The notes: generated by a model from the letters alone, not told the origin. A stretch of DNA of 58,951 nucleotides from Corallococcus praedator (GCF_003612125.1 NZ_RAWI01000010.1:1-58951); one strand, 5' to 3'. Numbered from the stretch's first letter, positions 12,580 through 34,463 are shown. Numbers and translations are program-made.

Positions 12580-12844
12580 ACGAGCCTCTTTCGATTTCGG
12601 AACGGGCGCGGCTCCTCTTCCAGCTCCCGGGTGCAGGGCACCGCCAGGGAAGCGTCGAAAGGAGCGCGGCGCGAAGCTACCTGCACAGGGTTGCGTTGGA
12701 ATCTGGGTCGTCTTCGCCCCTGGCGCGACCCGCCCGACCGCGAAAGTCCAGGGCTCGCGCACACGATGTTGGCGGCCGTATCGCGCGGGTGTTTCCCAAA
12801 CACAGAATGCCCGCAGCGGCTTGCTGGCATGACACCCACATGCC

Positions 12845-16134: not shown

Positions 16135-16799
16135 CGGCGCAGGCCCCGCTGGCCCGAGGGCGTGACGACGAGTCCGCGCGAGTCGGGTTGACGTTCCACC
16201 CAGCCCAGCGAGAACACCCGTGAGGCGAGCGCCGCCCCCAGCGCCCCGGCCAGGTGGTCGCGCCGCTCGCTCCAGTCCAGACAGCGGTGGGCGAACTGGC
16301 GGCGCTGTTCTCTCAAGGGGGCCAGCTCGATGCCGAAGGCCTCGAACCAATCCTCGCCGCTCGGGGTCAGCGCGAAGGCGCGGCGCCGCAGGGAGAGGTG
16401 CCCACCGCGCAGGAGCGCATCGGTGATGCCCATCCCGAGCCTTCCCGCCAGGTGGTCGTAGCAGTAGCGAGCGGCCCGGAGCGGCTCCGGCGTGGCCGAG
16501 GCCCGGGGTCCTCGGACGGCCACCGTCATCAGCGCCTCCACCATCCGCGCCACGGTGGGCGTGGCGAGCCGGAACACCTTGTTGCGCCCCTGGCGGGTCG
16601 AGCGGATCAACCGGGCCTGCTCCAGGCGCTTGAGGTGCACGGTGGCCGTCGCGGGGCTGACGCCGGTGCCGAAGGCCAGCTCCTTGGCGACGAGCGACCG
16701 CCCCTCCATGAGCAGCTCCAGCATCCGGATCCGCGTGGCATCCCCCACGGCGCCCGCCAGCGCGGCGAGGTCCGGCCCTGCATCCATCGTTCGTTCCAT
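16116..16799 (-). CDS. ArsR/SmtB-family winged-HTH transcriptional regulator with a C-terminal extension
   Basis: LAGAVGDATRIRMLELLMEGRSLVAKELAFGTGVSPATATVHLKRLEQARLIRSTRQGRNKVF; convergent with and overlapping the proC 3' end. Confidence 0.7.
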   Translation of the reverse strand: MERTMDAGPDLAALAGAVGDATRIRMLELLMEGRSLVAKELAFGTGVSPATATVHLKRLEQARLIRSTRQGRNKVFRLATPTVARMVEALMTVAVRGPRASATPEPLRAARYCYDHLAGRLGMGITDALLRGGHLSLRRRAFALTPSGEDWFEAFGIELAPLREQRRQFAHRCLDWSERRDHLAGALGAALASRVFSLGWVERQPDSRGLVVTPSGQRGLRRHFGAL

Positions 16800-16861
16800 G
16801 ACGAACCGTTTCCTAGCACAGGGAGGGTCCAGGAGGAGGACAGTGCCCGAAGCGAGGACTG

Positions 16862-18007
16862 ATGACACCGCCCACCGACCCGTATCAGGCCGTCACCCAC
16901 CCCGACCCCTACCCGTACTACGCCGCCCTGTGTGAACAGGGTGGCCTGCAGCGCATCCCGGGCTTCGAGCCGTGGATCGCGGCGGATGCCGCCACGGTGC
17001 AGGCCGTGCTCACGAGCGAGCATTGCCGGGTGCGGCCCCCGTCGGAGCCCGTTCCCCTGCATCTGGTGGACTCCGCCGCTGGCGTGCTCTTCGGGCGGCT
17101 GGTGCGGATGAACGACGCCGCGCCCTACCCGCTCGTGAAGCAGGCGCTGGCCGACGTGCTCCCCATGGTGATGCAAGCGGTGGCAACGGAGGGCCACCGC
17201 CAGGCCGCCCGGCTCTTCTCGGAGTCCCGGCTGTCGCGCCTGCCGGAGCTGGCGCTCCAGTTCCCCGTGCTCGTGCTCGGCTCCCTGCTGGGATTTCCAG
17301 AGGACACGCTGGAGGAGCGCGCGCGGGACGTGGAGGCCTATGTCCGTTCGGTCGCCCATCCTGCGGCGAGCCACGCGGGAGCAGAGGCGGCCGCGCGGCT
17401 CACTGAACATGTGGCCGTCAGCCTTCAAGCAAGGCCTCGCACCCCTGATGTGTTGAGCGCCTTCGCCGCGCGGATGCAACAGGTGGGAGCGCCCATCGCA
17501 GCGCTCGTGCCCAACGCGGTGGGATTGCTCACCCAGGCGTATGAAGCCACCGCGGGCCTCGTGGGGGCTTCACTGCTTGCCTTCGCGCGGATGCCCGAGC
17601 TGCGCGAGCAGCTTGCCCGGGGTGAGTGCTCGCTCGAGGACGTCGTCCGCGAAGCAGCCCGCCACGAGTCGCCGGTCCAGAACACCCGGCGCTTCCTCCC
17701 TGCGCGCGCGACGCTCGCGGGGCAGGAGTTGGAAGCGGGAGCGACGGTGGTCGTCGTGCTCGCCGCCGCGAACCGCGATCCCCGCGTGAATCCCCAGCCC
17801 GACGCCTTCCTCCCCCGCCGCGAGGCCCGCCGGACCTTCACGTTCGGACTGGGCGCCCATGCCTGCCCGGGACAGGCGCTCGCGGTGACGATGGCCTCCG
17901 CGGCCGTGGAGCGGGTGCTCGCGAGCGGCCTGGATCTCACCCCTCTGTCGCAATCCGTCACCTGGCGTGCGTCCACCAACGCTCGCATCCTGGGAGGTCT
18001 GTCTTGA
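16862..18007 (+). CDS. cytochrome P450
   Basis: Heme-binding loop FTFGLGAHACPGQALA (FxxGxHxCxG); EXXR (ESPVQNTRRF) region. Confidence 0.85.
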   Translation: MTPPTDPYQAVTHPDPYPYYAALCEQGGLQRIPGFEPWIAADAATVQAVLTSEHCRVRPPSEPVPLHLVDSAAGVLFGRLVRMNDAAPYPLVKQALADVLPMVMQAVATEGHRQAARLFSESRLSRLPELALQFPVLVLGSLLGFPEDTLEERARDVEAYVRSVAHPAASHAGAEAAARLTEHVAVSLQARPRTPDVLSAFAARMQQVGAPIAALVPNAVGLLTQAYEATAGLVGASLLAFARMPELREQLARGECSLEDVVREAARHESPVQNTRRFLPARATLAGQELEAGATVVVVLAAANRDPRVNPQPDAFLPRREARRTFTFGLGAHACPGQALAVTMASAAVERVLASGLDLTPLSQSVTWRASTNARILGGLS

Positions 18008-18882: not shown

Positions 18883-18988
18883 CCCGGCGCCGCCCGTGGC
18901 ACCTCTGCCATGAATTGAATTGGATGAGCCGCCACCTTCCAACGGGTATAGAATCCGCACCGCTCAGGCTCATGCACAAGGCGGCCCC

Positions 18989-20014
18989 ATGCTTGTTCTT
19001 TCCCTGATGACCTCCGCACACCTTCTTGGCGCGACGCCAGCGGCCCGGCTCGACATCCGGTGGGACACCTCCGAAGCAGACGCGGCCCTCGCCATCCTGG
19101 AGAAAGGCGAGGCGGCCAGCCCCTCCGACTGGAAGAAGCTCTTTCGCAGCAAGTGCTTCGTGCGGCTCGAAGCGCGAGAGGTCGCGCTGGGCAAGACACT
19201 GGGAACGCCTCGGACAGTCGACCTGGAGGCGTTCCGCCGTCACCTCACGAATCCGGAAGTGCGAAGCCAGAGAGCGACCTTCCTCCGCTCCCTTCAGGAA
19301 TGGAAGAAGACGGACCTGGAATCACTCTCGCGCAAGGTGCAGCGCTTCCTTCCCACCGGGAGTCCGCAGTCGTTCACCCTCTGCCCGATGATCAAGCCAC
19401 AGGACAACTCCTTCGTCTTCGACCTGGGCGGCAAGGAGCCTTCGATCTTCCTGTATCTCGATCCGAACCTCACCCAGCCGCAGTTCGAGGTCATGGTCGC
19501 CCACGAATCGCATCACGTGGGGCTTGGAGGGCACAAGCGTCCCGACCTCCTCGCGAAGGTCGAAACGCAGTCCCAGCAGGTCCAGGACGCCTGCCAATGG
19601 ATGGGCGCCTTTGGAGAAGGCTTCGCCATGCTCGCGGCCGCGGGGGGACCCGACGCGCATCCCCATGCGGTGAGCAAGGTCGAGGACCGGGAGCGCTGGG
19701 ACCGGGACATCGCGAACTTCCCCCAACACTTCGCGGAGCTGGACGCCTTCTTCGTGAGCATCCTCGAAGGCCGACTCAAGGGAGATGCCTTGCGCCAGCA
19801 AGCCGCCCGCTTCTACGGTCCTGAACAAGGCCCCTGGTACACGGTCGGCTACCAGATGGCGGTCCTCGTCGAGCGGCATCTGGGGCACGCCCGGCTCCTT
19901 CAATGCATGGAGGATCCACGCCTCCTGCCCGGCGCGTATGAAGAAGCCACGGCGAAGGCTGGCGGTACCCGGCCGCACTGGAACGCGAAGCTCCTCGAGC
20001 GACTGGCGTTCTGA
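18989..20014 (+). CDS. hypothetical secreted protein with an HExxH motif (putative zinc metallopeptidase-like)
   Basis: N-terminal signal-like MLVLSLMTSAHLLGATPA; VMVAHESHHVGL (HExxH); no confident family assignment. Confidence 0.4.
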   Translation: MLVLSLMTSAHLLGATPAARLDIRWDTSEADAALAILEKGEAASPSDWKKLFRSKCFVRLEAREVALGKTLGTPRTVDLEAFRRHLTNPEVRSQRATFLRSLQEWKKTDLESLSRKVQRFLPTGSPQSFTLCPMIKPQDNSFVFDLGGKEPSIFLYLDPNLTQPQFEVMVAHESHHVGLGGHKRPDLLAKVETQSQQVQDACQWMGAFGEGFAMLAAAGGPDAHPHAVSKVEDRERWDRDIANFPQHFAELDAFFVSILEGRLKGDALRQQAARFYGPEQGPWYTVGYQMAVLVERHLGHARLLQCMEDPRLLPGAYEEATAKAGGTRPHWNAKLLERLAF

Positions 20015-22213
20015 TCACCGGAGCTGGGCGGCCACCAGCGCGTTGTAGTGGCTGCCCTGGGAGAGCAACTCGCGGTGGGTCCCCATTTCGACAATGCGGC
20101 CCTTGTCGAGCGTGATGATGAGATCCGCGCCCACCACCGTGCTGAGTCGATGGGCGATGACGATCCGGGTGCAGTTCAGCGCGGCAAGCGAGGCCTGGAC
20201 GCGCTGCTCGGTGATGGCATCCAAGGCGCTCGTGGCCTCATCCAGCAGCAGGATGGACGGCTTGCGGACCAGTGCACGCGCCAGGGCCAGCCGCTGCCGC
20301 TGACCGCCGGACAGCGAGGCGCCCCGGTCCACCAACGGCGTGTCATAGCCCATGGGCATCGCCATGATTTCATCGTGGATCTGCGCCAGCTTCGCCGCCT
20401 CGATGATGTCGTCCAACGGCAGCTCGGGATCGGCCAGGGCAATGTTGGCGCGCAGGGAGCCGCCGAAAATGTACGCGTTCTGCATCACGATTCCGACCTG
20501 ACGCCGGACCGAGCGCAGGTCGACCTCGCGCAGGTCCCGTCCATCGAAGCGAATCAGCCCCTCCGACGGCGAGTAGAGGCCCAGAAGCAGACTCGCGAGC
20601 GTGGACTTGCCCGCGCCCGTTCGTCCGACAATGGCCACCAGCTGCCCGGGCTTGACCACCAGATCGAGGTCCTGGAGCACCAACGGCCCGTTGGACGCAT
20701 ACCGGAAGGACACCTTCTCGAAAGAGATGCCTCCCTGAAGCACTCCCACCGGAGAGCAGGAGTCCGCTGCCTGCTCCGGCTCCGCCTGCATGACGTCGTT
20801 GATCCGCTCCAGGTAGCCGTTGAGCACCTGGACCTGGGCTGACGTGGACAACAGGTTCGACAGGGGGATGAAGAAGCCCGCGGACAGCGCGCTGAGCGCC
20901 ATCAGCGTGCCAAGGCTGAACTGTCCCCCCAACACCTGCGCGGCCCCAAAACAGAGCACCACGAGCGGCGAGCCCAGGCGCAAGGTGGCCTGGAGGGATT
21001 CCGTCAACGCGTTCAGGTGCCCCCGCTTGAGCGCCACGTTGAGGACATCCACCAGCATCCCCGACCAGCGCTCCGCGGCCCGGTATTCCACCCCCATCGC
21101 CTTGAGCGTCTCGATGCCCGCCAGCATCTCGATCTGGAACGTGCGCGAGCGCGCCTCCGCCTCCAGGTTCTGCGCCATCAGCTCGTACTGCTGCCGCCGC
21201 GTCGCCACGAAGATCATGACCTGGACCAGCGTCAGGCCCAGGACCAACAGGAAGATGGGGATGCTGATGAACGCGAGGATGACCAGACACAGCAGGCTCA
21301 TCACCCCATCCAGCACCGAGGACAGAAGCCCCGTGGTGAGCAACTCCCGCACCGCGGAGTTGCTGGACAGGCGGTTCATCAGGTCGCCCGAGGAGCGCCG
21401 CTGGAAGAAGGCATAGGGCAGGTCGAGCAGATGCTCCAGGAAGCTCAGGGTCATCTGCGCATCCAGCTCCACCCGCATGGCCACCAGGAAGAACGAGCGC
21501 GTGAGGGAGGAGAGCAGGTAGAAGAGCATCACCGACGCCATGGCCGCGCTGAGGATCCACAGCAACTGGACATCCCCGCGCGGAACCACCTTGTCGACCA
21601 GGACTCCCGTCAGCGCGGGCAGTCCAAGGGCAAAGAGCTGCACAAGCAACGAGGCGACCAGGATTCGCGCCAACAGCCCGGACTGCACCAGCAGCTTGTA
21701 AGCGTACCGTCGCAACGGCCGCTCGTCGGAGCGGGCCTTCTCGAAGGACTCTCCCGGCTCGAGCAACAGGGCGATGCCGGTAAAGGAACGGCTGAACTGG
21801 GCAAGGGCGATCCTGCGCCGCCCCACCCCTGGATCGACCACGTCGACCCATTCTCCGTCGAGCCGCTCGAAGAGGATGAAGTGCTGGAACTCCCAGTGGA
21901 GGATGGACCCGGGAGGCAGGTACTGCAGATCTCCCAGCTCCAATCGGGCGGCGCGCCCCCGCATCCGGAAGTGGCTGGCCGCGGCGAGGATCCCGGCGAG
22001 GCTCGCGCCATCGCGGGACAGCCCCATCACATCCCGGACCTCGTCCAAGCGGACTTCTCGGCCATGGTAGTTCAGCAGCATGGCCAGACAGGCCGCGCCG
22101 CACTCGGTGGCGCTGAGTTGCTGGATGTAGGGCAGCCGCTTGCGAGGGGCCTTGGGAATCAGCCGCCGCAGGGACGGAAACCGCTCGAGCAGGGACCTTG
22201 AAGTATCGGGCAT
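20015..22213 (-). CDS. peptidase-containing ABC transporter (PCAT): N-terminal C39 double-glycine peptidase, 6-TM domain, C-terminal ATPase
   Basis: C39 Cys motif QQLSATECGAACLAMLLNYHG; Walker A GRTGAGKST; signature LSGGQRQRLALARAL; Walker B ILLLDEATSALD. Confidence 0.9.
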   Translation of the reverse strand: MPDTSRSLLERFPSLRRLIPKAPRKRLPYIQQLSATECGAACLAMLLNYHGREVRLDEVRDVMGLSRDGASLAGILAAASHFRMRGRAARLELGDLQYLPPGSILHWEFQHFILFERLDGEWVDVVDPGVGRRRIALAQFSRSFTGIALLLEPGESFEKARSDERPLRRYAYKLLVQSGLLARILVASLLVQLFALGLPALTGVLVDKVVPRGDVQLLWILSAAMASVMLFYLLSSLTRSFFLVAMRVELDAQMTLSFLEHLLDLPYAFFQRRSSGDLMNRLSSNSAVRELLTTGLLSSVLDGVMSLLCLVILAFISIPIFLLVLGLTLVQVMIFVATRRQQYELMAQNLEAEARSRTFQIEMLAGIETLKAMGVEYRAAERWSGMLVDVLNVALKRGHLNALTESLQATLRLGSPLVVLCFGAAQVLGGQFSLGTLMALSALSAGFFIPLSNLLSTSAQVQVLNGYLERINDVMQAEPEQAADSCSPVGVLQGGISFEKVSFRYASNGPLVLQDLDLVVKPGQLVAIVGRTGAGKSTLASLLLGLYSPSEGLIRFDGRDLREVDLRSVRRQVGIVMQNAYIFGGSLRANIALADPELPLDDIIEAAKLAQIHDEIMAMPMGYDTPLVDRGASLSGGQRQRLALARALVRKPSILLLDEATSALDAITEQRVQASLAALNCTRIVIAHRLSTVVGADLIITLDKGRIVEMGTHRELLSQGSHYNALVAAQLR

Positions 22214-22220
22214 GACGCGC

Positions 22221-23156
22221 TCAGGGCAGGAAGGCCTTCAACGCTGGAACCAGGAGGACGAGCAGGCGCTCTGACTTGACCCGTGCCTGGGCCTGCCCGA
22301 GCATTCCGTCGAAGTAGTCGAGCTGCTCCCCCTCCACCTCGAAGGAGGTCCGGGGCACATGCGCCTGCACGAGCACGACGGCGCCCTCGACCGTGAAGCT
22401 CTCCCCCAGTTCGGGGCCCAGGTAGCGACGCACGGCGCTCGGCCCCACCAGCTCCTCGCCCACGGAATCGATGACGAGCTCCTGGTACTGGTAGGCGAAA
22501 CCCCGCACCTCCAAACGCATGGAGCCTCCCGCCCGAAGCAGGGGCCGGTATTCGCCCGGAAGCATCGCGGTCACCGTCAGCCGCTGGGACGGCTCCAGGA
22601 TCGACAGCGCCACCTCGCCGGCCACCAGATGCTGGCCCTCGCGGATGCGGACGTCGCTGACCACGCCCGCATGCGGCGCCAGCACGTTCCGGGACGACAG
22701 CCGGGCCCGCGCCAGCTCCTGCTGGGCACGAAGGCTGGTCAGCGCCGAGCGAGCCCCCTCGTCGTTGAGGTCGGTCAACCGCCGCGTCAGCTGCAGTTCG
22801 AATTCCCGGGTGAAACGTTCCAGGTCGGCGAGCTCCGTCGTGTCCGAAAGCCGCACCAACACCTGGCCCTGTTCAACCCGTTGCCCCGGACGCGCCTCCA
22901 CCGCCGTCACGACGCCTGACTCCTGGACGGGCAGTTCCGTACGACCTTCCAGGCGGATGACCGCGGGCCCCGTGGCGTACTCGAAGACGCGTCCGAAGAG
23001 ACCGAACGCGACGAAGAAGACCGAGGCCACGAGCACGAGCCAGAAGAGCGAGTGGGTCCAGGAAGGCGAGATGCGCAGGACCGCGCTGTACTGCTGGTTC
23101 TGGTTGTAGGCCTCGAGCGCCTCGGGGCGAAAAAGCTCCTCGTGCTTACGCGGCAT
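22221..23156 (-). CDS. HlyD-family membrane fusion (secretion adaptor) protein
   Basis: Single N-terminal TM (LFWLVLVASVFFVAFGLFG), then a coiled-coil/barrel-sandwich HlyD pattern; 8-bp gap to the PCAT gene. Confidence 0.7.
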   Translation of the reverse strand: MPRKHEELFRPEALEAYNQNQQYSAVLRISPSWTHSLFWLVLVASVFFVAFGLFGRVFEYATGPAVIRLEGRTELPVQESGVVTAVEARPGQRVEQGQVLVRLSDTTELADLERFTREFELQLTRRLTDLNDEGARSALTSLRAQQELARARLSSRNVLAPHAGVVSDVRIREGQHLVAGEVALSILEPSQRLTVTAMLPGEYRPLLRAGGSMRLEVRGFAYQYQELVIDSVGEELVGPSAVRRYLGPELGESFTVEGAVVLVQAHVPRTSFEVEGEQLDYFDGMLGQAQARVKSERLLVLLVPALKAFLP

Positions 23157-23186
23157 GAGCGTGCTCCTTCCAGAAGCCGTCTGGCC

Positions 23187-24146
23187 TCATTGAGACACGC
23201 AGGGGGCCGACTCGGTCGTCGCGCCACCGCCATCCGCTTCGGGCCGGACCCGGACCACTTCGCCAAAGGTGAACCGCATGTCGGTTGAACCGGTGTCCTG
23301 CACCGCCGTCGCGAACACCATCCGGGAAGCGGCATCCACCTCCGCGGCGATGCTGGTCACCTTCGCGCGCAGCAGCGCCTCCCCCGCCTTGGGACGCACC
23401 ACCACGGAGGCGCCCACCGCGAGGTCGCGGACCTGCCCCTCGGGAATGGCGAAGCGAACCCAGCCATCCTTGTCCTGGATGACCCGGAGGATGGGCGTGC
23501 CCACGCGCACCAGGGCTCCCACGGAGAGATAGCGCGCCGTCACCACGCCATCGAAGGGCGAGCGCAACCGGCCCTCCGCCAGCCGGGCCCGTGCCTGCTC
23601 CAGTTCGGCCTGCCGCTGCTGCAAGCGCGCCCGGGCGGCCTCCAGGTCCGCGACGGCCATCTGATGCTGGAAGCGGGCTTGCGCCACTTCCTGCGCGGGC
23701 AACACCCCCGCCGCGGGCAGCTCCGCGCGCGCCAGCAAGTCCTTCTTTTCATCCACGCTGACCCGCGCGCGGAGTTCCTCCGCCCGGGCGACCGCGAGCG
23801 CGGCCTCGGCCACGGCCAGCAGCTGCTCTTCCTCCTTCAGCTCCAGGACACCCAGCTCCGCGCCTTCCTTGACCCGGTCCCCCTCGCGCACGGCCAGCCG
23901 CTTCAGCCTGCCTTCCACGCGCGCGGTCACCTCCGCCGACTGCGCGGACAACGCCACCCCCAGCCACTCCTCACGTCGAAGCGCGATGGGAGGCCTGCAG
24001 GGCCCCCCACGCGTCAGGCTTGAAGAGGGTTCACGAAGGGGGATGACCCGGCTCTTGACGATGACCAAACCCAGGCAGGCGGACAGCGCCGCCAGCAGTC
24101 CGACAGCGCCGAGCCGAGTGGTCGACCAGCGTTTGAAGTACCTCAT
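23187..24146 (-). CDS. second HlyD/biotin-lipoyl-like periplasmic adaptor protein
   Basis: N-terminal TM (LGAVGLLAALSACLGLVIV), long Ala/Glu/Arg coiled coil, C-terminal beta-barrel segment. Confidence 0.6.
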   Translation of the reverse strand: MRYFKRWSTTRLGAVGLLAALSACLGLVIVKSRVIPLREPSSSLTRGGPCRPPIALRREEWLGVALSAQSAEVTARVEGRLKRLAVREGDRVKEGAELGVLELKEEEQLLAVAEAALAVARAEELRARVSVDEKKDLLARAELPAAGVLPAQEVAQARFQHQMAVADLEAARARLQQRQAELEQARARLAEGRLRSPFDGVVTARYLSVGALVRVGTPILRVIQDKDGWVRFAIPEGQVRDLAVGASVVVRPKAGEALLRAKVTSIAAEVDAASRMVFATAVQDTGSTDMRFTFGEVVRVRPEADGGGATTESAPCVSQ

Positions 24147-24182
24147 CTCCAGGGCCAGCCTACAGTGCCGGAGCAGACGCGA

Positions 24183-25409
24183 TCAAATGGTCGTCCTGCC
24201 CGCCATCTGCCCTGTGTTGAGCAGGTTCAACCCCGGGCAGGACCGCACGACCTTGTCTCCGTCACGCTCGGAATTGGCCAGCATCATGGTTTCGTCCGAC
24301 GCGTCCCGGAAGCCAGGCGCGGCCCAGACCTCGGGGAGGGAGGCCTCGTGCGCGTTCCCGAAGCCGCCGGGAAACAGCTCGCAGGTGGCGATGCGGCCCT
24401 CCGCGTCGATCTTGACCTTCATCTTTCCCGCGCCGCAGGGGGAGGGAGCAAAGGGCTTCAGCCAGCCGTTGCTGACCAGCTGGTTGCGCACGAGGGGCGA
24501 AATCCTCAGCGCCTGGGGAGAGCGGTCTCCGTTGAGCCGGCCGTGGATGATGTCGTCAAAGACGATGTAGTGGCCCAGTTCCTCCATCTGCTGCTTCATC
24601 TCCGCGAGCTGATCCGTGTTGCGCGTCCAGATGGTGCAATTGACCTTCACGCGGATGCCCACGTCCGCCAGGGCCCGCAGCCCCGCCATCGTCTTCACCA
24701 GGCTGCCTGCGACCGCCGTGAACTCGTCGTGGACCTCGGCGGTCGACCCATAGAGGCTGGCGTGGGTTTCGTGAGCGGGATCCTTCGCATAGTCCCGGGC
24801 CCGCTGCGCGGTGAACGTCGTCGCGTTCGTCTTGAGCACCGTATAGAGGTGCAGCGACTTCGCCTCGGTGACGAAGCGCTGGTAGCCGCGATGGAGCGTC
24901 GCCTCACCGCCGGTGAGGCTGACATCCAGACAGCCCATGGACGCCAGGTCCCGCAGCATCCGGAGCACCGTCTCGTCATCCACGTGCGCCGGCCGCTCCT
25001 CCTCGATCTTGTGCAGGACGAAGCAGTGCTGACACCGCAGATTGCAGCGGTAGGTGATCTCACACATTCCCGTCAGGGGAATGCGCTCCTGGAGGGACAG
25101 CTTGGGCAGCCGCGCTCCTGCCGCCCCCTTGAAGAGTCCTCCCATCGGGATCGGCTGCGAGACCTGCTGGAACTGGGCGAAGACGCCGCGGATCGCCTCG
25201 ATGACCGCCTGCTGTTGGGCATTGTCGGAAGAGCCCCCCTCCACCAGGCGCAGCAGACCGTCGAGCCCTGAAGACTCGACCAGTCTGCGCATCACCGTGA
25301 CCAGGGGGCCGTGGGCCAGATGACGCGCGCCATCGCGGCGACTCAGGACGGCCAGCTCATCATCATAGAAACGGAGGACCACCGCCTCGCTTCGATAGAT
25401 CGAGATCAT
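24183..25409 (-). CDS. radical SAM / SPASM-domain peptide-modifying enzyme with an N-terminal RRE-like extension
   Basis: CxxxCxxC (ITYRCNLRCQHCF) about 130 aa from the N-terminus; C-terminal Cys-rich SPASM region (CELFPGGFGNAHE..., SCPG). The ATG overlaps the stop of the upstream rSAM gene (ATGA). Confidence 0.85.
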   Translation of the reverse strand: MISIYRSEAVVLRFYDDELAVLSRRDGARHLAHGPLVTVMRRLVESSGLDGLLRLVEGGSSDNAQQQAVIEAIRGVFAQFQQVSQPIPMGGLFKGAAGARLPKLSLQERIPLTGMCEITYRCNLRCQHCFVLHKIEEERPAHVDDETVLRMLRDLASMGCLDVSLTGGEATLHRGYQRFVTEAKSLHLYTVLKTNATTFTAQRARDYAKDPAHETHASLYGSTAEVHDEFTAVAGSLVKTMAGLRALADVGIRVKVNCTIWTRNTDQLAEMKQQMEELGHYIVFDDIIHGRLNGDRSPQALRISPLVRNQLVSNGWLKPFAPSPCGAGKMKVKIDAEGRIATCELFPGGFGNAHEASLPEVWAAPGFRDASDETMMLANSERDGDKVVRSCPGLNLLNTGQMAGRTTI

Positions 25410-26644
25410 GCCCGCTCCTTCTCCCGCCACGTGTCCCACTGATTTCGGAACTCAGCCAGCCCGCCCTCGCGCATGAGGAGGTTGTTCGCGGGACACGGGG
25501 ACTTCAAACTGGCGCCACGAACGAAGCCCGCTGATTTGCAGTATTCGATCCAGAATTCACGAAACGCCGTCAGGTCCGCGGACCGGTTCCAGATGGCTTC
25601 CAGCCCCTGCTCGAAGGCATTTCCAAACAGGAGGGTGAGCTTGGGACATGCCCGAACGCTGCCGTCGGGCTCGATTCCCAGGCCGTTCATGGACGGCGTA
25701 CAAGGCAGTTCCCGCTTCTGCTTCACTTCCTTGCGCGGGATGTCCACCGTCAAGCCATCCGGTGCGGGTTTGCCGTCGAAGATGTCACCATGGATGGTGA
25801 CCGCCGCATATTTCACCTTCACGCCCAGCGGCATCAGCAGTTGGTTGATCTGCTCGTAGCCATGGTTCGTCGTGGAGGTCGCGAAATACTTCACGTGGAC
25901 AGGAACGCCCTCCTCCACGAGGTGACGCACGCCTCGGATGCTTGCATCATGTCCGGCCTTGGAGCCGGTGTAGCCCTCGGAGGAGGCCGCGTCGTAGCCG
26001 TAGATGGAGACCTCCACGCTTGAGACGAGCACGTTGCGCAAGGCCTTGGCGATGCGAGGCGTGATGCAGGAGCCGTTGGTGTTGATCTCCGCGGAGATGT
26101 TCTGCGCGCTGAGCGCATCCAGGAGGGTGAGGATGTCGGGGCGGATGAAGGGCTCTCCACCCGTGATGGTGGCGTAGGTGCACCCCAGCTCACCGGCCTG
26201 CCGGATGAGCGTCAACCATTGCTCGGTGGTCCCCTCGTGGCGCGATGCTCCAGACACCGGGGCAAGGCGTGCGCCCAGATAGCAGCCCTTGCACGCGAAA
26301 TTGCAGCGATGCGTCAACTCCAGATGCATCTTCCGGAGCTGCGGACGGGGCGGGGGTTCACGCGAGTCCAGGTCGAAGTCGGCTTCGTTCTCCAAGGCGC
26401 CCCGGGTGGCGAGCTTGGAGATGGCAGCCAGCACCCGGGCCCGGCTGGGGAGGTCCAACCCCCTCATGACGGTGTGCTGCATGTCGCTCTGGAGCTCCGC
26501 GAGCCCCACCAAGGTATCCCAGAGCTGGGCCGCTGGCCCCGACAGGGTGAACGACTCAGGATGAGGCATGCTCCAAGTCGCATGCGGAGTGATGCGATAG
26601 GAGCCATCTGGCTCCCGTTCAAATGAACTTTGAAGCTTGATCAC
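25406..26644 (-). CDS. radical SAM / SPASM-domain peptide-modifying enzyme with a PqqD-like RRE N-terminus
   Basis: LELTHRCNFACKGCYL radical-SAM cluster motif; auxiliary-cluster cysteines (CTPSMNG, CPKL, CPANN); N-terminal FTLSGPAAQLWDTLVG PqqD-like; GTG start with GGAGGG SD. Confidence 0.85.
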   Translation of the reverse strand: MIKLQSSFEREPDGSYRITPHATWSMPHPESFTLSGPAAQLWDTLVGLAELQSDMQHTVMRGLDLPSRARVLAAISKLATRGALENEADFDLDSREPPPRPQLRKMHLELTHRCNFACKGCYLGARLAPVSGASRHEGTTEQWLTLIRQAGELGCTYATITGGEPFIRPDILTLLDALSAQNISAEINTNGSCITPRIAKALRNVLVSSVEVSIYGYDAASSEGYTGSKAGHDASIRGVRHLVEEGVPVHVKYFATSTTNHGYEQINQLLMPLGVKVKYAAVTIHGDIFDGKPAPDGLTVDIPRKEVKQKRELPCTPSMNGLGIEPDGSVRACPKLTLLFGNAFEQGLEAIWNRSADLTAFREFWIEYCKSAGFVRGASLKSPCPANNLLMREGGLAEFRNQWDTWREKERA

Positions 26645-26717
26645 TTTGCCCTCCCGTCGGTCACCCTGCCGGAGACAGCTCCGTTGGGAACGGTTGCCTA
26701 ACGGACGTCAGACTGAA

Positions 26718-26894
26718 CTAGGCGCACTTCGAGCTGCAGATGATGATGTCACCGTCATCGCTGCCGCTCTTGAGGCCGCCCGTGATGTCCAGCAGGCGCG
26801 AGTCCACGCTGTCGATGGCCTTGCCGAGCTCGAGGCTGAGCTTCTGGGTCTTCTCGTTCTGGGCAACGGCGTCCTGCGTCTTGCTCTCGTTCAT
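26718..26894 (-). CDS. RiPP precursor peptide (58 aa) with a double-glycine leader and an 18-aa Cys/Asp/Ser-rich core; not in the ORF track (<60 aa)
   Basis: ATG with GGGAG SD. MNESKTQDAVAQNEKTQKLSLELGKAIDSVDSRLLDITGG-LKSGSDDGDIIICSSKCA. Leader fits the LSxxELxxIxGG-type consensus recognised by C39 peptidases. High GC3. 73 bp upstream of the rSAM pair, same strand. Confidence 0.75.
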   Translation of the reverse strand: MNESKTQDAVAQNEKTQKLSLELGKAIDSVDSRLLDITGGLKSGSDDGDIIICSSKCA

Positions 26895-27298
26895 GTTCAG
26901 CTCCCTTGGGTGGCACTGCGGTACAACACCTGGAGTGGATGGCGACCTGGGCCCCCACCTTCAGCGCGACGGGACTGACACAGCCTTGGCAACACCGAGG
27001 GCAGTGGAGCAGATCCTTCCTGGCCTGCGCCTGGGAAGGGATTCGACTCACACAAGCACCTTCCAGACAGCACAGGGCACCAAGGTGCCCTCCTCCCCCA
27101 CAAGTCCGCCCCGCACAAGATTGACGAAGCATCCAACAGCTAACGCGCCCCTGTCAATCCGGCAAACCCCGCTTACGAACTCAACTGGCATTGCCCCCTC
27201 ACAATCGCGCACACGCCCCCCAATCCACTTTCAATAACGCGTCAAGCCAAGTCTTCGCGAGATGAGAGGCGATCTCCCGCAAAAGCACGCAGCGACTC
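26895..27298 (-). promoter_or_regulatory. intergenic leader/promoter region of the precursor-rSAM-exporter operon (~400 bp, lower GC than the flanks)
   Basis: Non-coding in all frames, relatively AT-richer; no convincing sigma-54 or sigma-70 consensus could be placed by eye. Confidence 0.3.
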
Positions 27299-29983
27299 CT
27301 AATGAGCGCGGAGGAAGTCCTGGACGCTCTGCTGCTGCAGCTTCGCGGATTCAATGCACAGCCGGATGGACTCCAGCGCCCGGGCCAGTGCGCGCGGCCC
27401 GCCCTCCACGCGCTTCACGCGGGGCGCAAGGAAGGCCTCCGCTTCCGCGAGCTGGGTCGCATCACAGAGATTGCCCACCTGGTTGATGAGTCCACCCTGC
27501 TCATCCGAGCGCAGTCGCTGCGAGAGCACGTCGAACTGCTGGCGGTAGAACTCCCAGGCCAGAGGCTGCGTCTCCGGCATGTTCAGCGACATCTTCAGGA
27601 TGGCCAGGGCATCCCGCGTGTCGAAGTCCGACCCCACCACCAATCCCAGTGCCCGTCGCTCCAGCTCCGGCTGCCGGAAATAGCTCAGCGCCGACAGCAG
27701 CCGGACGCGCTCGTTGCGGTCCTGCTCCTTCTTCGCGGCCTCCAACAATGCATTGAACAGCGAGGCATCGCCGTGGGACGCCGCCCGGGGCAGCGCGCTG
27801 GCCAGCGCCTCCGGGTCCACGGACTTCCGGTCCGCGAGCCACGCACGCACCAACGGCGTGGCTTCCTTCAGCAGCGCCGGATCCTCACCCAGCCCGCCCG
27901 CCAGCCGCAGGAACAGCGAACGCGACTGCTTCACGTCGTCACCGTCGCCGGGCTTCGACACCCACCCCAACGCCCGTGCACGCGGCGCATAGAGCGACGC
28001 CACCCAGGCGCGAAAGCGCTTCCGCTCCTCCACCGAAAGCCGGTCCACCCGCACCTGCCAGAGCAGCGCGGCCGCGCTCTCCACCACCAGCCGCTCCGGC
28101 GAGCGCGCCGTGGCAGGCACAGCCTCCAGCGCCTCCCCGAGCGGCAGGTCTCCGCGACCCACCGCCGCGTCCACGTCCGCCCAGAGGGCCACCTGCTCTC
28201 CCGTCGTGAACGCCGACGCCGGGGTCGCCAGCAGCTTCGCGAGCTGCTCACGCGTGTAGCCGCCGCGGTAGTACCCCGTGCCGCCCGCGTTGAGCAGGAC
28301 CCACGCCGGGCACTGCTTCGTCGGCAGCGCCACCTCCATCGAAGGCCCCTGCAACATCGAGCACACCCGGGATGACCGCGTCCCCGTCCCCGCGCGCAGA
28401 CACACCGGCACCTGCCATTCCTGCTGCGTGCTCGCCCGGGAGCCGGCGGGCAGATACCGCTCCTGCGACAGCTTCACCGTCGGCGCGCCCCCCGCCGGGC
28501 ACGTCACCTGGGCGGACACTCGTGGCGCCCCGCCCTTCTCGATGAAGCCCTTGAAGGAGCTCGCCACCTCCGGCCCCGCCGCCTGGGACACCTCCGCCAG
28601 GAAGTCCTCCGTCGTCACGGCGCCCCACGCGTGCTTGCGGACGTAGCCTCGCATCACGTCGCGGAAGCGCTCCGCCCCCAGCCACGCCTCGAACATGGCG
28701 ATGACGGACGAGCCCTTGTCATACGTCGTCCCATTGTCGAACGAACCCACGATGTCGTCGTTGCTCGCCACCGGCTTGCGCACCGGCAGCGCGGCCTCCA
28801 GCGCATCCGAAGCCAACGCCGACTCCGTCGCGGACATGGCCCGCTCCTGCTGGAAGCTCCAGGACGGCTCAAGCCGGTCCACCGTCTGCCGATCCAGCCA
28901 CGCCGTGAACGACTCGTTCAACCAGATGTCATCCCACCAGGCATTGGTGACGACGGCGCTGAACCAGTAGTGCCCCAATTCGTGGTTGGCGATGACCGCG
29001 TAGGAACGGCGCCGGTTCAGCGTCTCCTCCCCGGGAGGAATCAGCGTCAACGGCTGCCCGAGCGCCACGAGGCCCGGGTGCTCCATGGTGCCCCAGTACC
29101 GGGGCACCACCGCCACATCCAGCTTCTCGTAGGGATACGTCTGGTCGAAGAAGTCCTCCAGGCCCTTCACGATGCGCGGCGTGACGCTCGCGGCGTAGCG
29201 CGTCTCCCCGCCCCGCCCCTTCGGCACGATGAAGCGCAGGGGCACGCTCGCGCGCCCCACCGCGCCCGCCTCCACCACGTCGAACGGCCCCACGATGAAC
29301 GCCACCAGGTAGCTGGGCATGGGCCGGCTCTCCGCGAACGTGACGCGCTCCAGCCCGTCCGCCACGGGCTCGCGCGAGACGACGGGATGGTTGGCCAGGG
29401 CCACGTGCCCCGGCTTCACCGTCAGGCGCAGCTTCCATGGCACCTTGAAGGCCGGCTCGTCGAAGCACGGGAAGGCGCGCCGCGCGTCGATGGGCTCGAA
29501 GAACGTGTAGAGATACGACTCACCGCCCTCCGCCTGTCCATAGACACCCTGGCTGCGCTCGCGGTCCACCTTGCCGGTGAAGTCCAGGGTGAGCGTCGCC
29601 GTGCCCACGGGCAGCTCCTCCGGCAACAGCAATCCCAGCCGTCCTTCACTTTCGGAGACGGGCTTCGCGTCGAAGGTGCGGCCGCCCACCGTCACCCTGG
29701 CGCGCGTCACTTCCAGGTCCTGGCCATGCAGCCACACCTGACGCACCGGCTCGCGCACCTCCACGTCGATGCTCACGCTGCCCGGATAGGTGGCCTCCGC
29801 GGGCAGCAGCTTCAGGTCCAATGCGTAGCGCAGGGGCCGCACCGTGTCCGGCAGCCGCAGCACGGGAGGCCGGGGCTCCGGCCATGCGAGGGTGGCAGGC
29901 GCGGCGGCCGGGGGCGCGGCCTCCGGCGCGTGGGCACAGCGGACGGTCACCGCGACAACAAGCGACAGGAGGAGTCGGTTCAT
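27299..29983 (-). CDS. secreted M1-family zinc aminopeptidase (aminopeptidase N-like)
   Basis: Signal peptide MNRLLLSLVVAVTVRCAHA; GTMEHPGL (GAMEN-type) exopeptidase motif; HELGHYWFS...18 aa...NESFTAW (HExxH-x18-E). Confidence 0.9.
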   Translation of the reverse strand: MNRLLLSLVVAVTVRCAHAPEAAPPAAAPATLAWPEPRPPVLRLPDTVRPLRYALDLKLLPAEATYPGSVSIDVEVREPVRQVWLHGQDLEVTRARVTVGGRTFDAKPVSESEGRLGLLLPEELPVGTATLTLDFTGKVDRERSQGVYGQAEGGESYLYTFFEPIDARRAFPCFDEPAFKVPWKLRLTVKPGHVALANHPVVSREPVADGLERVTFAESRPMPSYLVAFIVGPFDVVEAGAVGRASVPLRFIVPKGRGGETRYAASVTPRIVKGLEDFFDQTYPYEKLDVAVVPRYWGTMEHPGLVALGQPLTLIPPGEETLNRRRSYAVIANHELGHYWFSAVVTNAWWDDIWLNESFTAWLDRQTVDRLEPSWSFQQERAMSATESALASDALEAALPVRKPVASNDDIVGSFDNGTTYDKGSSVIAMFEAWLGAERFRDVMRGYVRKHAWGAVTTEDFLAEVSQAAGPEVASSFKGFIEKGGAPRVSAQVTCPAGGAPTVKLSQERYLPAGSRASTQQEWQVPVCLRAGTGTRSSRVCSMLQGPSMEVALPTKQCPAWVLLNAGGTGYYRGGYTREQLAKLLATPASAFTTGEQVALWADVDAAVGRGDLPLGEALEAVPATARSPERLVVESAAALLWQVRVDRLSVEERKRFRAWVASLYAPRARALGWVSKPGDGDDVKQSRSLFLRLAGGLGEDPALLKEATPLVRAWLADRKSVDPEALASALPRAASHGDASLFNALLEAAKKEQDRNERVRLLSALSYFRQPELERRALGLVVGSDFDTRDALAILKMSLNMPETQPLAWEFYRQQFDVLSQRLRSDEQGGLINQVGNLCDATQLAEAEAFLAPRVKRVEGGPRALARALESIRLCIESAKLQQQSVQDFLRAH

Positions 29984-30134
29984 GGCTCCGGAGCGTAGCG
30001 CCCTCCCAACCGACGTCCAGGGTAACCACCGACCCGAAGGGTTTGAACAGACACCCGCCTCCAATGCAATCACAGTCTGTGTTTCCTGATTCAATCTGGT
30101 AGATCGAAACACTCTCCCCCACCAGGAAGGTGCG

Positions 30135-32483
30135 ATGCGTCGGCAGCCCCCTCTGTCTAGCGTTATGCTTTACATGGTAACCAGCTTTGCAATGGCTGTC
30201 ATGGCTTGCAGCCCTGACACCGCCGAGCCCGTGCCCGAAACCGGAGACGTGCGGTTCATCAGCGCGGTGCCCCAGGCGCTCGCGGGCGATGAGGTCACCC
30301 GGGTGACCGTGACGCTGACGGCCACGGGCGTGCCCTCGTCCACGGCCGTGCTCACGAAGAGCGCGGACAGCTGGAGTGGCACGCTGTACCAGGTCCCCGC
30401 GGGCACCCAGCGAACCTTCACCGCGGAGGCCTTCGCGGCGGACGGCTCGCTGCGCTACCGCGGCGCGGCAACGGATGTCACCATCACGGCGGGCACCACG
30501 TCGGTCGTCGCCATCACGCTCCAGGCCCTGAATGTGCCCGGGCCCTTCGACAACTCCGCGCCCTGCATCGACTCGCTGGTGGCGTCCGCCAGCACCGTGC
30601 TGCCCGGGGGCACGCTGTCCCTCCAGGCCACCGCGCATGACCCGGACACCTCGGACACGTTCACCTATGCGTGGACGGCGACGGGCGGCACCTTCGGCTC
30701 GGCCGCGCTCGCCTCGACGACCTGGACGGCCCCCGCGACGCCGGGCGTCGTCACGCTGACGCTGACGGTCACCGACTCGCGCGGCGCCGCCGCGGTCATC
30801 CGCATCAACATCACGGTCATCTCGACGGACGGCGGACCGGACTCGGGCGTGGCCCAGGTGTCCGTGACCTTCAACGTCTCCCCCGCCGTGAACCGCGTCA
30901 CCGCGTCGCAGTCCCCGCTGCCGGTGGGCCAGAGCACCACCGTGGTCGCGGACGTGACGGATCCGGACGGCGATGCGCTGACCTACCAGTGGACGGCGTC
31001 CTGCGCCGGAACGTGGACCGACGCCACCGCCAGCACGGCGTCCTTCACCCCGAGCGCGGTGCCGGCCGGCGAGTCCTGCGGCAACTGCTCGCTCACCGTC
31101 ACCGTGAAGGATCCGAACGGCGGCCAGACGCAGGGCACCCTGCGCATCTGCGTCGGCACGGGTCCCGTCGCCAACGTGCCCCCGCGCATCGTCCTGTCGA
31201 ACCAGAGCGCGCTCTCCGTGGCGGGCAATGGCACCGTGACGTTCCGCGTCCTCGCGGAGGACGGCAATGGCAGCGCGCTCACCTTCGCCTGGGCGTCGAG
31301 CCACGGCACGCTGGGCACGGCCACCTCCGGGTTCACCTCCAGCGAGATCGCCTGGAAGGCCCCGGCCTGCATCCCCGATGGCCCCAGCCCCACCATCAGC
31401 GCCACCGTCACGAACGCCCTGGGCTTCTCCGCGTCCACGAGCTTCAGCGTCGCCGTGGTGGGCGTGCCGACCTGCACCCCGCCTCCGGAGAGCACCGTCG
31501 CGCGGTGGGATGCCACGGCCGCCATGACGGTCCGTCGCTTCGGCGCGAGCGTCATCCCCCTGCCCTCCGGCAAGATCTTCGTCTTCGGGGGAGTGACCGT
31601 GTCGAACCCCGTCCTGGTGTCCGGCGAAATCTATGATCCCGCCACGGCGACCTGGGCCCCGGCCACCTCCATGGGGACGGCGCACTACTCGCCGGCGGTG
31701 ACCCTGCTGCCCTCCGGAAAGCTCCTGGTCACGGGAGGCTTCGGGCTCTACCCAAGCACCACCCCGCTGCGCAACGTGGAGCTCTACGATCCCGCCACCA
31801 ACACCTGGACGGCCGGGCCGACCATGGCGTTCGCGCGCGGGAGCCACACGTCGACGCTGCTGCCCAACGGCAAGGTGCTCATCATCGGCGGAAACACGTC
31901 GGGCGACACCGCGAGCAATCGCATCCCGGAGCTGTTCGACCCCGCGACGATGACGTTCGTGCCGGTGGCGGCCTCGACCTTCGTCCATACGGGCCACCTG
32001 GCGGTGTTGCTGCCGTCGGGCAAGATCCTCGTCTTGGGCGGCAACTCCCCGGCGGAGTTCTATGATCCGGCCACCAACACCTGGAGCAACGCCACGGGGC
32101 TCATCAACCGCAACTTCACGCACGCCTTCCTGCAGCCATCGGGCAAGCTCCTGCTGGCCGGGAGCACCACCCTGATCGCGCTGTATGACCCCGTGCTCAA
32201 CGTCCAGACGACGGCGGGGAACTTCAGCTACGACCGCCCGACGTCCTCCATCGTCCAGTTGGCGTCGGGAAAGCTCCTGCTGGCGGGAGGCAACTCCCTG
32301 GTGGGCCTGACGACGGAGCTCTTCGATCCGGCCACCGGGACGACGTCCTTCTCCATCAGCATGGCGTCGAACCGCTATTCGATGGGCACCACCCTGCTGC
32401 CCAACGGCAAGGTGCTCTTCATTGGCGGGTATGACCGGGACGCGGGGGCGAGCGTCAACGCGGCCCTCCTCTACACCCCCTGA
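30135..32483 (+). CDS. lipoprotein with N-terminal Ig/PKD-like domains (paralogous to 7527-9902) and a C-terminal Kelch-repeat beta-propeller
   Basis: Lipobox AMAVMACSPD. N-terminal about 330 aa align with the RCC1 lipoprotein (NVPGPFDNSAPCIDSLVAS...TYAWTATGG vs NAPAPFENTAPVITSLVAS...TYAWTASAG). C-terminal Kelch blades (GKLLVTGG, GKVLIIGG, GKILVLGG...). AGGAAGG SD. Confidence 0.8.
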   Translation: MRRQPPLSSVMLYMVTSFAMAVMACSPDTAEPVPETGDVRFISAVPQALAGDEVTRVTVTLTATGVPSSTAVLTKSADSWSGTLYQVPAGTQRTFTAEAFAADGSLRYRGAATDVTITAGTTSVVAITLQALNVPGPFDNSAPCIDSLVASASTVLPGGTLSLQATAHDPDTSDTFTYAWTATGGTFGSAALASTTWTAPATPGVVTLTLTVTDSRGAAAVIRINITVISTDGGPDSGVAQVSVTFNVSPAVNRVTASQSPLPVGQSTTVVADVTDPDGDALTYQWTASCAGTWTDATASTASFTPSAVPAGESCGNCSLTVTVKDPNGGQTQGTLRICVGTGPVANVPPRIVLSNQSALSVAGNGTVTFRVLAEDGNGSALTFAWASSHGTLGTATSGFTSSEIAWKAPACIPDGPSPTISATVTNALGFSASTSFSVAVVGVPTCTPPPESTVARWDATAAMTVRRFGASVIPLPSGKIFVFGGVTVSNPVLVSGEIYDPATATWAPATSMGTAHYSPAVTLLPSGKLLVTGGFGLYPSTTPLRNVELYDPATNTWTAGPTMAFARGSHTSTLLPNGKVLIIGGNTSGDTASNRIPELFDPATMTFVPVAASTFVHTGHLAVLLPSGKILVLGGNSPAEFYDPATNTWSNATGLINRNFTHAFLQPSGKLLLAGSTTLIALYDPVLNVQTTAGNFSYDRPTSSIVQLASGKLLLAGGNSLVGLTTELFDPATGTTSFSISMASNRYSMGTTLLPNGKVLFIGGYDRDAGASVNAALLYTP

Positions 32484-33401: not shown

Positions 33402-33450
33402 CCGTCGCACCCACCCCGGGGCGCATGGGTGCGCCAGGAACAAGGCCCTC

Positions 33451-34371: not shown

Positions 34372-34463
34372 TCCGACGAAGACGTCGTTTTCTGCCGGAT
34401 TTCCGTCCTCCGCTGACATGGGTATCTTCCAGGTGTCCTGTTTCTCTTGAAGGAGCCTCCGAG

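Follow-up and report, generated by a model that had tools for sequence, protein, structure and literature searches.

A candidate operon of Corallococcus praedator for the synthesis and export of a peptide modified by two SkfB-like radical-SAM enzymes

What peptide might two adjacent radical S-adenosylmethionine (radical-SAM) enzymes of Corallococcus praedator act upon, and what would become of it? The enzymes are encoded within a run of six minus-strand genes at positions 20015-26894 of a 58,951-nucleotide stretch of the genome (NZ_RAWI01000010.1:1-58951, hereafter the window). An interpretation made earlier from the nucleotides alone (the sequence-only reading) took the run for an operon devoted to a peptide that is ribosomally synthesized and then post-translationally modified (a RiPP). 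The analysis described here favors the same answer, with a rough probability of 0.6: a self-contained operon for the biosynthesis and export of a RiPP, in which thioethers derived from radical-SAM chemistry are the favored modification. The locus belongs to an uncharacterised family within a known kind, the radical-SAM RiPPs exported by peptidase-containing ATP-binding cassette transporters (PCATs).

The genes follow one another in a single direction: precursor, the two radical-SAM maturases rSAM2 and rSAM1, membrane-fusion adaptors a and b, and the PCAT (Table 1). The coordinates of the open reading frames (ORFs) give, in gene order, intergenic gaps of 73, -4, 36, 30, and 7 bp, exactly the co-directional arrangement and spacing first proposed. 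The negative value is an ATGA overlap between the stop codon of rSAM2 and the start codon of rSAM1, visible directly in the sequence as GCATGATC (in the context CGGGCATGATCTCG). The rSAM1, adaptor, exporter, and precursor products have identical counterparts in Corallococcus praedator and Corallococcus sp. CA031C, on two contigs only, and the RefSeq names are generic: 'radical SAM protein', 'HlyD family...', and 'peptidase domain-containing ABC transporter'.

The proposed substrate is the 58-residue product of the first gene. Translation confirms the leader (residues 1-40) that had been read as ending in LLDITGG and, following it, a core, LKSGSDDGDIIICSSKCA, with two cysteines, three aspartates, and no aromatic residue. 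The ATG, the GGGAG resembling a Shine-Dalgarno site (6 nt upstream of it), and the strong codon bias that had been noticed were all found, the GC fraction being 0.95 at third codon positions (GC3) and 0.39 at second positions (GC2). The peptide is identical to WP_158620272.1 ('MULTISPECIES: hypothetical protein [Corallococcus]') and so is already an NCBI gene call. No model of Pfam or of NCBIfam (June 2026) matches it.

The precursor is one of a family. A profile of such small ORFs finds 35 clusters in a set of 5.8 billion proteins and 18 representatives among 1.84 billion clusters made at 50% identity, all of them unnamed or 'hypothetical'. A search with rSAM2 finds 43 full-length clusters (40-76% identity, E<=1e-91), with the next match only at 1e-23, and a search with rSAM1 finds 29 clusters at E<=1e-64, with the next match only at 1e-31. 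The family is therefore rare, at about 43 enzyme clusters and those 18 precursor representatives. The contigs of ten members yielded 11 distinct loci (numbered L081-L092, two pairs being duplicates), and all 11 have the same order: an ORF of 47-68 codons, an rSAM2 homologue, and an rSAM1 homologue. Conservation of the precursor in orthologous loci, which the sequence-only reading had required, thus holds throughout, with the small ORF lying directly upstream of the enzyme pair. Since the related loci range from 51 to 72% GC, the family is evidently not confined to one genus; one of the loci comes from a metagenome-assembled genome of the Kofleriaceae. A scan of genome contigs with the back-translated rSAM2 alignment gave no orthologous locus among the matches listed, the best of them being 30% identical; the back-translated patterns were generic radical-SAM motifs. 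In one locus, L088, on a contig from a long-read metagenome, the rSAM1 homologue is broken into a 214-residue SPASM-bearing fragment with opposite-strand ORFs at both sides, probably through frameshift errors of assembly and not through real decay.

Conservation among the precursors is concentrated near the C-terminus. When 50 unique precursors are aligned on their first cysteine, the consensus is D-[VI]-x-[IV]-C-x-[ST]-x-C, which the Corallococcus segment D49-I-I-I-C53-S-S-K-C57 (DIIICSSKC) fits exactly. All 50 have Cys1 (position 0), Val or Ile at -3, and Ile or Val at -1; Asp is found at -4 in 49 and Ser or Thr at +2 in 48. Cys2 is kept in every precursor, at +4 in 49 of them and behind a four-residue spacer in the other. 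In the one precursor that departs at -4, Asp is replaced by Pro, and the locus of that member still encodes both enzymes. The leaders share a looser motif, L-x-K-A-[IV]-[DE]-x-[IVL]-D. Within the family the Corallococcus precursor stands out for its spacer of 8 residues from the double-glycine site to the conserved Asp, the longest of all, and for its tail of one Ala, the shortest. In the window it is the only coding-strand match to the core motif; the single other match to the pattern, on the opposite strand within rSAM2, is regarded as a chance occurrence. Searches with tblastn and for motifs turned up no second precursor elsewhere in the window.

The enzymes rSAM1 (identical to WP_120582411.1) and rSAM2 are paralogues (24% identity, E 4e-18), and in both, Pfam recognizes Radical_SAM (63-67 bits, cut-off 29.5) together with a weak, partial SPASM match (23-30 bits). 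From their sequences both are probably active, because they keep the CxxxCxxC motif of the SAM cluster (C114/C118/C121 in rSAM2, C122/C126/C129 in rSAM1) and the GGE motif (G162-G163-E164 and G167-G168-E169), all invariant in both enzyme families. The first of these motifs starts at residues 114 and 122, in agreement with the N-terminal extensions of roughly 100-120 residues originally described. A C-terminal, Cys-rich SPASM region had also been described, and this did not hold. The conservation alignments of both enzyme families lack the CX2CX5CX3C block of a full seven-cysteine SPASM, and each family has just three invariant C-terminal cysteines (C315/C333/C384 in rSAM2, C325/C343/C391 in rSAM1), a C-x17-C...C pattern that is Twitch-like, as in SkfB. 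In alignment, the C-x17-C segment falls on the Twitch hairpin of SkfB, and AlphaFold2 models of the two enzymes, with predicted local distance difference test (pLDDT) scores of 91.1 for rSAM2 and 94.8 for rSAM1, place paired hairpin strands at 321-333 and 331-341, respectively, at high pLDDT. Each enzyme has a single site for a Twitch-type auxiliary cluster, at which binding of a cluster is predicted. The models also give the N-terminal domains (about residues 1-86 of rSAM2 and 1-81 of rSAM1) the topology beta-beta-beta(-beta)-alpha-alpha-alpha. Such an order, three to four strands and then three helices over the first 80-90 residues, matches that of a RiPP recognition element (RRE), and the fold alignments with the RRE-bearing enzymes SkfB, SuiB, and CteB extend over the whole length (406-460 columns).

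To what known enzymes are these two most closely related? Neither reaches the cut-off of any NCBIfam model, the best scores being 97 against 400 for ScmF (rSAM2) and 79 against 625 for StsB (rSAM1). A profile search of the PDB leads from the rSAM1 family to SkfB (E 2.6e-30) and from the rSAM2 family to PqqE and SkfB (about 1e-19 to 1e-18), and the top Foldseek match of both models is SkfB (with a TM of 0.57-0.60 for rSAM1), followed by EpeE, PqqE, SuiB, CteB, TigE, and MoaA. The link to thioether-forming maturases that was proposed from the nucleotides is therefore sustained by profile and by predicted fold, inasmuch as the best solved relative of both enzymes is a sactisynthase. SkfB, from the sporulation killing factor (sactipeptide) system of Bacillus subtilis, combines an RRE, a radical-SAM domain, and a Twitch domain, makes the thioether Cys4-Met12, and reportedly tolerates hydrophobic acceptors best (PMC8172795). 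The Corallococcus enzymes are predicted to share its three-part architecture (N-terminal peptide-binding domain, radical-SAM core, and Twitch domain with a single auxiliary cluster) and are of nearly its size (about 410 residues), and the substrate of SkfB is a leader-dependent peptide that contains cysteine (PMC8172795), as the precursor would be here. They differ from SkfB in that identity is only 17-19% (with a score of 62 against the cut-off of 300 for TIGR04403), that there are two paralogous enzymes per precursor, and that three Twitch cysteines are conserved while SkfB has four ligands. The precursor is unrelated as well, with its short C-terminal D-V-x-I-C-x-S-x-C core and cysteines at the C-terminal end, and export from this Gram-negative host would be by a PCAT and HlyD adaptors, with no equivalents of SkfC/E/F/H.

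Two other comparisons are apt. In the sactibiotic thuricin CD, as here, two adjacent radical-SAM maturases are encoded together, and TrnC and TrnD assemble into a tight complex and work together (PMC12093266). However, the thuricin CD system comprises two distinct precursors and enzymes with a full SPASM, whereas the window has one precursor (its relatives, one or two near-identical copies) and Twitch-like enzymes, neither significantly related to any named TrnC/TrnD model in NCBIfam. The ranthipeptides are radical-SAM RiPPs with thioethers, for which Asp or Asn is a possible acceptor. The core motif of PapB is C-x3-D, which the D-x3-C of the present family mirrors, and that of NxxcB is N-x-x-C, in which the acceptor precedes the donor, as it would here. 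But CteB, PapB, and NxxcB have a full SPASM with two auxiliary clusters, and CteB is a weak match to the Corallococcus enzymes (profile E only about 3e-5 to 6e-5). Furthermore, the core has two cysteines, not six, and the order is D-x3-C, not a repeated C-x3-D.

The remaining genes of the operon speak to the fate of the peptide. The C39 peptidase domain of the PCAT has Q32, C38, H111, and D127 in register with the catalytic residues of LahT150 (6MPZ, E 4e-26) and PCAT1 (4RY2), so alignment upholds the earlier statement that the catalytic Cys is retained and finds the His as well, within a Gln/Cys/His/Asp set. The leader, L(-7)-L-D-I(-4)-T-G-G, has hydrophobic residues at -4 and -7 and a double glycine, as do PCAT substrates. 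The best NCBIfam model for the transporter is TIGR03796 (NHLM_micro_ABC1), which gives 616 bits where the cut-off is 853, while TIGR01193 (bacteriocin_ABC) scores 403 against 524. Adaptor a matches HlyD_D23 and HlyD_3 of Pfam, exceeds the cut-off of TIGR01730 (109 bits against 94.9), and begins with a lipoprotein-like signal, LLAALSAC; a homologue of it follows rSAM1 in the closest related locus, L086. Adaptor b ('HlyD family efflux transporter periplasmic adaptor subunit' in RefSeq) matches HlyD_3 (8e-13) and also HlyD_D23, and has one N-terminal transmembrane helix. Neither Pfam nor NCBIfam reveals a gene for an outer-membrane factor at the operon. The system recalls NHLP/Nif11 export (TIGR03796/03797/03794), both in the best model of its exporter and in leaders that end in GG or AG, and loci L084, L090, and L091 have the full set of PCAT, second ABC protein, HlyD protein, and outer-membrane factor. 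It differs in that the window has one ABC protein and two adaptors, with no second ABC or OEP gene, and in that the leader is of neither the NHLP nor the Nif11 type.

Across the family, leaders end in GG or AG in all five loci with or next to a PCAT-type exporter or its HlyD/ABC partners (the window, L086, L084, L090, and L091), and in none of the six with MFS_3 or MacB exporters. Of these five, the window, L084, and L091 show the C39 transporter itself; L086 ends inside the HlyD gene after rSAM1 and L090 begins in an ABC fragment, both at contig ends. Since the type of leader tracks the type of exporter, the exporter appears functionally tied to the peptide. Every locus of sufficient extent includes an exporter, and a secreted product is thereby favored over an intracellular cofactor.

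Peptidases of other kinds occur near these genes. Most of the loci that lack a PCAT carry S9 prolyl-oligopeptidase genes (Table 1), and in their precursors a Pro often precedes the conserved Asp by 2-4 residues (RAPEVD, ESPAVD), which suggests an alternative, Pro-directed removal of the leader. In the window, a co-directional gene for an M1-family aminopeptidase lies about 400 bp upstream of the precursor, and its product could remove the eight surplus residues at the N-terminus of the core that would remain after cleavage at the double glycine. On the other side, a gene for a putative zinc peptidase (DUF5700) converges on the exporter with zero gap, its stop codon ending at 20014 and that of the PCAT at 20015. 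Both peptidases were considered as members of the cluster and rejected, as neither recurs in the related loci.

The pathway that these observations bring to mind is one in which modification of a nine-residue core, guided by the leader, would be followed by cleavage at the double glycine and export. The 40-residue leader would be bound by the winged-helix-like N-terminal domains of both SkfB-like enzymes, which may act as a complex. The enzymes would then modify the C-terminal core D-I-I-I-C-S-S-K-C, the single Twitch-type auxiliary Fe-S cluster of each helping to join one of the invariant cysteines, as a thioether, to a nearby carbon. Candidate acceptors are the beta-branched aliphatic residues at -3 and -1, the Asp at -4, and the Ser or Thr at +2, and the outcome would be a small bicyclic peptide. 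Each enzyme may serve one cysteine, or the two may form an obligate complex, by analogy with TrnC/TrnD (PMC12093266). Finally, the C39 domain would cut after Gly-Gly, and the PCAT with its two adaptors would expel a product of about 18 residues. We infer the order of events, the thioether chemistry, and the acceptor residues, as well as any biological activity. A thioether derived from cysteine seems the most likely chemistry, at somewhat better than even odds, because the nearest characterised enzyme is a sactisynthase, because no reactive side chains other than those of the two cysteines are invariant, and because an auxiliary cluster with three cysteines may leave an iron free for the thiolate of the substrate, as in the mechanisms proposed for CteB and AlbA.

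How well does this scheme stand against others? The most radical alternative is that the 58-codon ORF arises by chance and that both enzymes act on some other substrate. Short ORFs are indeed abundant in high-GC DNA, and this one yields a peptide with no counterpart in Pfam or NCBIfam, but chance would not readily account for its third-position bias, for the Shine-Dalgarno-like sequence ahead of its ATG, or for homologous ORFs in the same position in 11 of 11 loci over so wide a range of GC content. Because of this conservation, together with E-values for the precursor profile down to 5e-21 against 1.84 billion proteins, the idea is effectively refuted, with a likelihood close to nil. A second alternative accepts the precursor and supposes that it and the enzyme pair make an intracellular redox cofactor, like pyrroloquinoline quinone (PQQ) or mycofactocin, the exporter being unrelated. 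Such cofactors are indeed products of radical-SAM enzymes that have RRE and Twitch/SPASM domains, and PqqE and MftC are among the weak matches in NCBIfam and the PDB. The scores, however, are far under the cut-offs (67-80 against 381 for PqqE, TIGR02109; 61-67 against 265 for MftC, TIGR03962), the precursor has neither E-x3-Y nor a C-terminal Gly-Val-Tyr, and no PqqB/C/D, MftB/D/E/F, or partner dehydrogenase is present. Exporters, peptidases, or both lie beside the enzyme pair wherever the contig extends, and the leader covaries with the exporter, so we regard a cofactor as very improbable. The sequence-only reading had also named sulfatase maturation as a function that its maturases might turn out to have; the enzymes fall outside this class as they do outside that of the cofactor enzymes, with anaerobic sulfatase-maturating enzymes at E of about 1e-6 by profile and ranked 11th or lower by fold, and with neither a sulfatase motif (C/S-x-P/A-x-R) in the precursor nor a sulfatase gene at the locus.

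A nearer rival keeps the RiPP operon and questions the bond. One or both enzymes might carry out chemistry other than thioether formation (epimerisation of the invariant Val/Ile to D-amino acids, as by EpeE/YydG; C-C or C-O links; conversion of Val to cyclopropylglycine, as by TigE), with the cysteine pair serving as a disulfide or a metal site. The only fully invariant positions besides the cysteines are the beta-branched aliphatics at -3 and -1, residue types on which EpeE (Val, Ile) and TigE (Val) act, and EpeE is the second-best fold match of rSAM2 (E 5e-11), with TigE among the matches of rSAM1. A C-x3-C pair can form a disulfide with no enzyme at all, and the MFS_3 (EntS-like) exporters beside some loci, and a TonB receptor beside one, are compatible with a product that binds metal. 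Several points weigh against a thioether in their own right. It is a best guess, predicted from sequence and fold. The cysteines lie on the C-terminal side of most of the conserved candidate acceptors, in the opposite order to classical sactipeptides, and the auxiliary cluster would have three conserved cysteines as against four ligands in SkfB. Enzymes that do not make thioethers (EpeE, PqqE, SuiB, TigE, and MoaA) match the fold at similar E-values; the sactisynthase models stay far below their cut-offs for rSAM1 (StsB NF045574, 79/625; SkfB TIGR04403, 62/300; AlbA NF012164, 55/850), and for rSAM2 only StsB appears (56/625), SkfB and AlbA not being among the 25 models listed. Matching two enzymes with two cysteines amounts to numerical reasoning and is no evidence. 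Even the PqqD-like character claimed for the N-termini stands only in part: the predicted fold and the equivalence to the N-terminal domain of SkfB (PMC8172795) favor it, making the RRE a fold-based assignment, while PF05402 has no match at E<=10 on ten N-terminal fragments, and hhalign finds nothing significant between the N-terminal alignments and three PqqD-bearing N-termini or between the alignments themselves. Nevertheless, SkfB comes first for both enzymes, and the absolute conservation of two cysteines at a spacing fixed in 49 of 50 precursors is most simply explained if the cysteines are the reacting groups. An auxiliary cluster with three cysteines and a free iron site would also fit thiolate binding, to judge from the literature on CteB. 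On balance the rival chemistry is rather unlikely, and the thioether-forming RiPP operon is the reading we prefer.

Most relatives of the operon appear to go a step further. A gene for a B12-binding radical-SAM protein of about 550 residues directly follows rSAM1 in 8 of the 11 loci, and it is probably a C-methyltransferase that tailors the same core. The gene is absent from the window (motif and tblastn searches found none elsewhere in it), from the closest relative, L086, and from L090 and L091. In view of its absence, the Corallococcus operon is the minimal form of the pathway. In GenBank, RefSeq, and other source annotations, family members bear generic names only, and full-text searches of open-access papers and preprints, including searches for literal core strings, found no description of the family, an absence of evidence only. 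Nothing in these searches, or in those of NCBIfam and Pfam, contradicts the claim of an undescribed product.

The operon differs slightly from its surroundings, with a GC fraction of 0.662 (0.682 for the whole window), and this, together with its presence on two contigs only, is consistent with a strain-specific accessory cluster. The rSAM2 protein, whether begun with V or M, was not found in a collection of 15 billion proteins, where its best homologue is 76% identical, and the other five products are present there as Corallococcus praedator proteins. Perhaps the rSAM2 gene is missing, mis-started, or flagged as a pseudogene in public annotation. Across 19500-27600, a scan for signals of transcription gave nothing resembling a promoter and a single terminator-like site, which lies within the PCAT gene, a lower tally than shuffled sequences gave. 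The 73-nt spacer between precursor and rSAM2 gave no signal of an attenuator hairpin (z = -0.17), and no repeats were found in the 400 bp upstream of the precursor.

Other genes lie farther away in the window. Three encode repeat proteins, two of them RCC1-repeat beta-propellers and one a Kelch-repeat protein. The 796-residue RCC1 protein and the Kelch protein have the same N-terminal K319L-like module of PKD and Big_9, and from their sequences the group looks like a secreted propeller family on a common stalk. An ORF of 876 codons matches Biopterin_H (aromatic amino-acid hydroxylase) only at residues of about 550-640 and is unusually long for that family; its start or frame may be wrong, since high-GC3 ORFs overlap it. 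There is also a small cluster at 15289-18007, comprising an oxidoreductase, a regulator, and an ORF with a cytochrome P450 match.

Table 1. Positions of the operon genes, of features within them, and of other genes in the window and in related loci
Feature	Sequence	Position	Strand	Size or residues	Basis or content
Precursor peptide gene	window	26718..26894	-	58 aa + stop	translation, GC3, homologous small ORFs
Precursor leader	window	26775-26894	-	residues 1-40	
Precursor core	window	26721-26774	-	residues 41-58	
Conserved core motif	window	26724..26750	-		
Shine-Dalgarno-like site	window	26901-26905	-		GGGAG
Other match to core pattern	window	25759-25785	+		
rSAM2 radical-SAM maturase	window	25406..26644	-	412 aa, GTG start	Pfam, conservation, AlphaFold2 model
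rSAM1 radical-SAM maturase, rSAM2 paralogue	window	24183..25409	-	408 aa, ATG start	Pfam, conservation, AlphaFold2 model
Membrane-fusion adaptor a, RND_mfp/HlyD type	window	23187..24146	-	319 aa	Pfam, TIGR01730
Membrane-fusion adaptor b, HlyD type	window	22221..23156	-	311 aa	Pfam HlyD_3
Peptidase-containing ABC transporter (PCAT)	window	20015..22213	-	732 aa	Pfam C39 + ABC_membrane + ABC_tran
C39 domain of PCAT	window	21749-22135	-	residues 27-155	
M1-family aminopeptidase	window	27299-30112	-	937 aa	Peptidase_M1_N + Peptidase_M1 + ERAP1_C
Putative zinc peptidase	window	18920-20014	+		DUF5700
RCC1- or Kelch-repeat protein	window	7527-9917	-		
RCC1- or Kelch-repeat protein	window	11347-12762	-		
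RCC1- or Kelch-repeat protein	window	30135-32483	+		
Long ORF with Biopterin_H match	window	33429-36059	+	876 aa	
Overlapping high-GC3 ORFs	window	33208-34371			
P5C-reductase-like oxidoreductase	window	15289-16134	+		
ArsR/MarR-type regulator	window	16116-16868	-		
ORF	window	16862-18007	+		C-terminal cytochrome P450 match only
B12-radical-SAM gene	L081	15361-17094			
B12-radical-SAM gene	L083	11492-13141			
B12-radical-SAM gene	L084	11459-13150			
B12-radical-SAM gene	L087	8211-9863			
B12-radical-SAM gene	L089	11490-13139			
B12-radical-SAM gene	L092	4810-6465			
S9 prolyl-oligopeptidase gene	L083	6086-8197			
S9 prolyl-oligopeptidase gene	L089	6009-8054			
S9 prolyl-oligopeptidase gene	L087	12318-14813			
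S9 prolyl-oligopeptidase gene	L084	13150-15180			
Broken rSAM1 homologue	L088	10268-11902		214-aa fragment	SPASM-bearing

Many orphan families of radical-SAM RiPPs exist, and the radical-SAM RiPPs, such as darobactin, the sactibiotics, and the ranthipeptides, have been a repeated source of antibiotics and of new kinds of bond. What the present family offers is a compact substrate, with a nearly invariant core of nine residues and two obligatorily paired SkfB-like enzymes, and hence a tractable system in which to see how two Twitch-type enzymes work on one peptide. The Corallococcus version, minimal in lacking the B12 enzyme and equipped with a single precursor with a double-glycine leader and an exporter of its own, comes from a cultivable predatory myxobacterium and is the natural entry point. 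If the chemistry proves to be that of an ordinary sactionine, the gain would be a new subfamily of sactipeptides in Gram-negative bacteria. A bolder thought, which we offer tentatively and at somewhat less than even odds, is that the paired Twitch-type enzymes install on D-V-x-I-C-x-S-x-C a pattern of modification new to RiPPs, for example two small overlapping thioether rings whose acceptors (carbons of beta-branched aliphatic residues or of Asp) lie N-terminal to the donor cysteines, or some other heterocycle derived from cysteine. If so, the family would be a new class of RiPP, found mainly in Myxococcota-like soil bacteria, with most of its members tailored further by a B12-radical-SAM enzyme.

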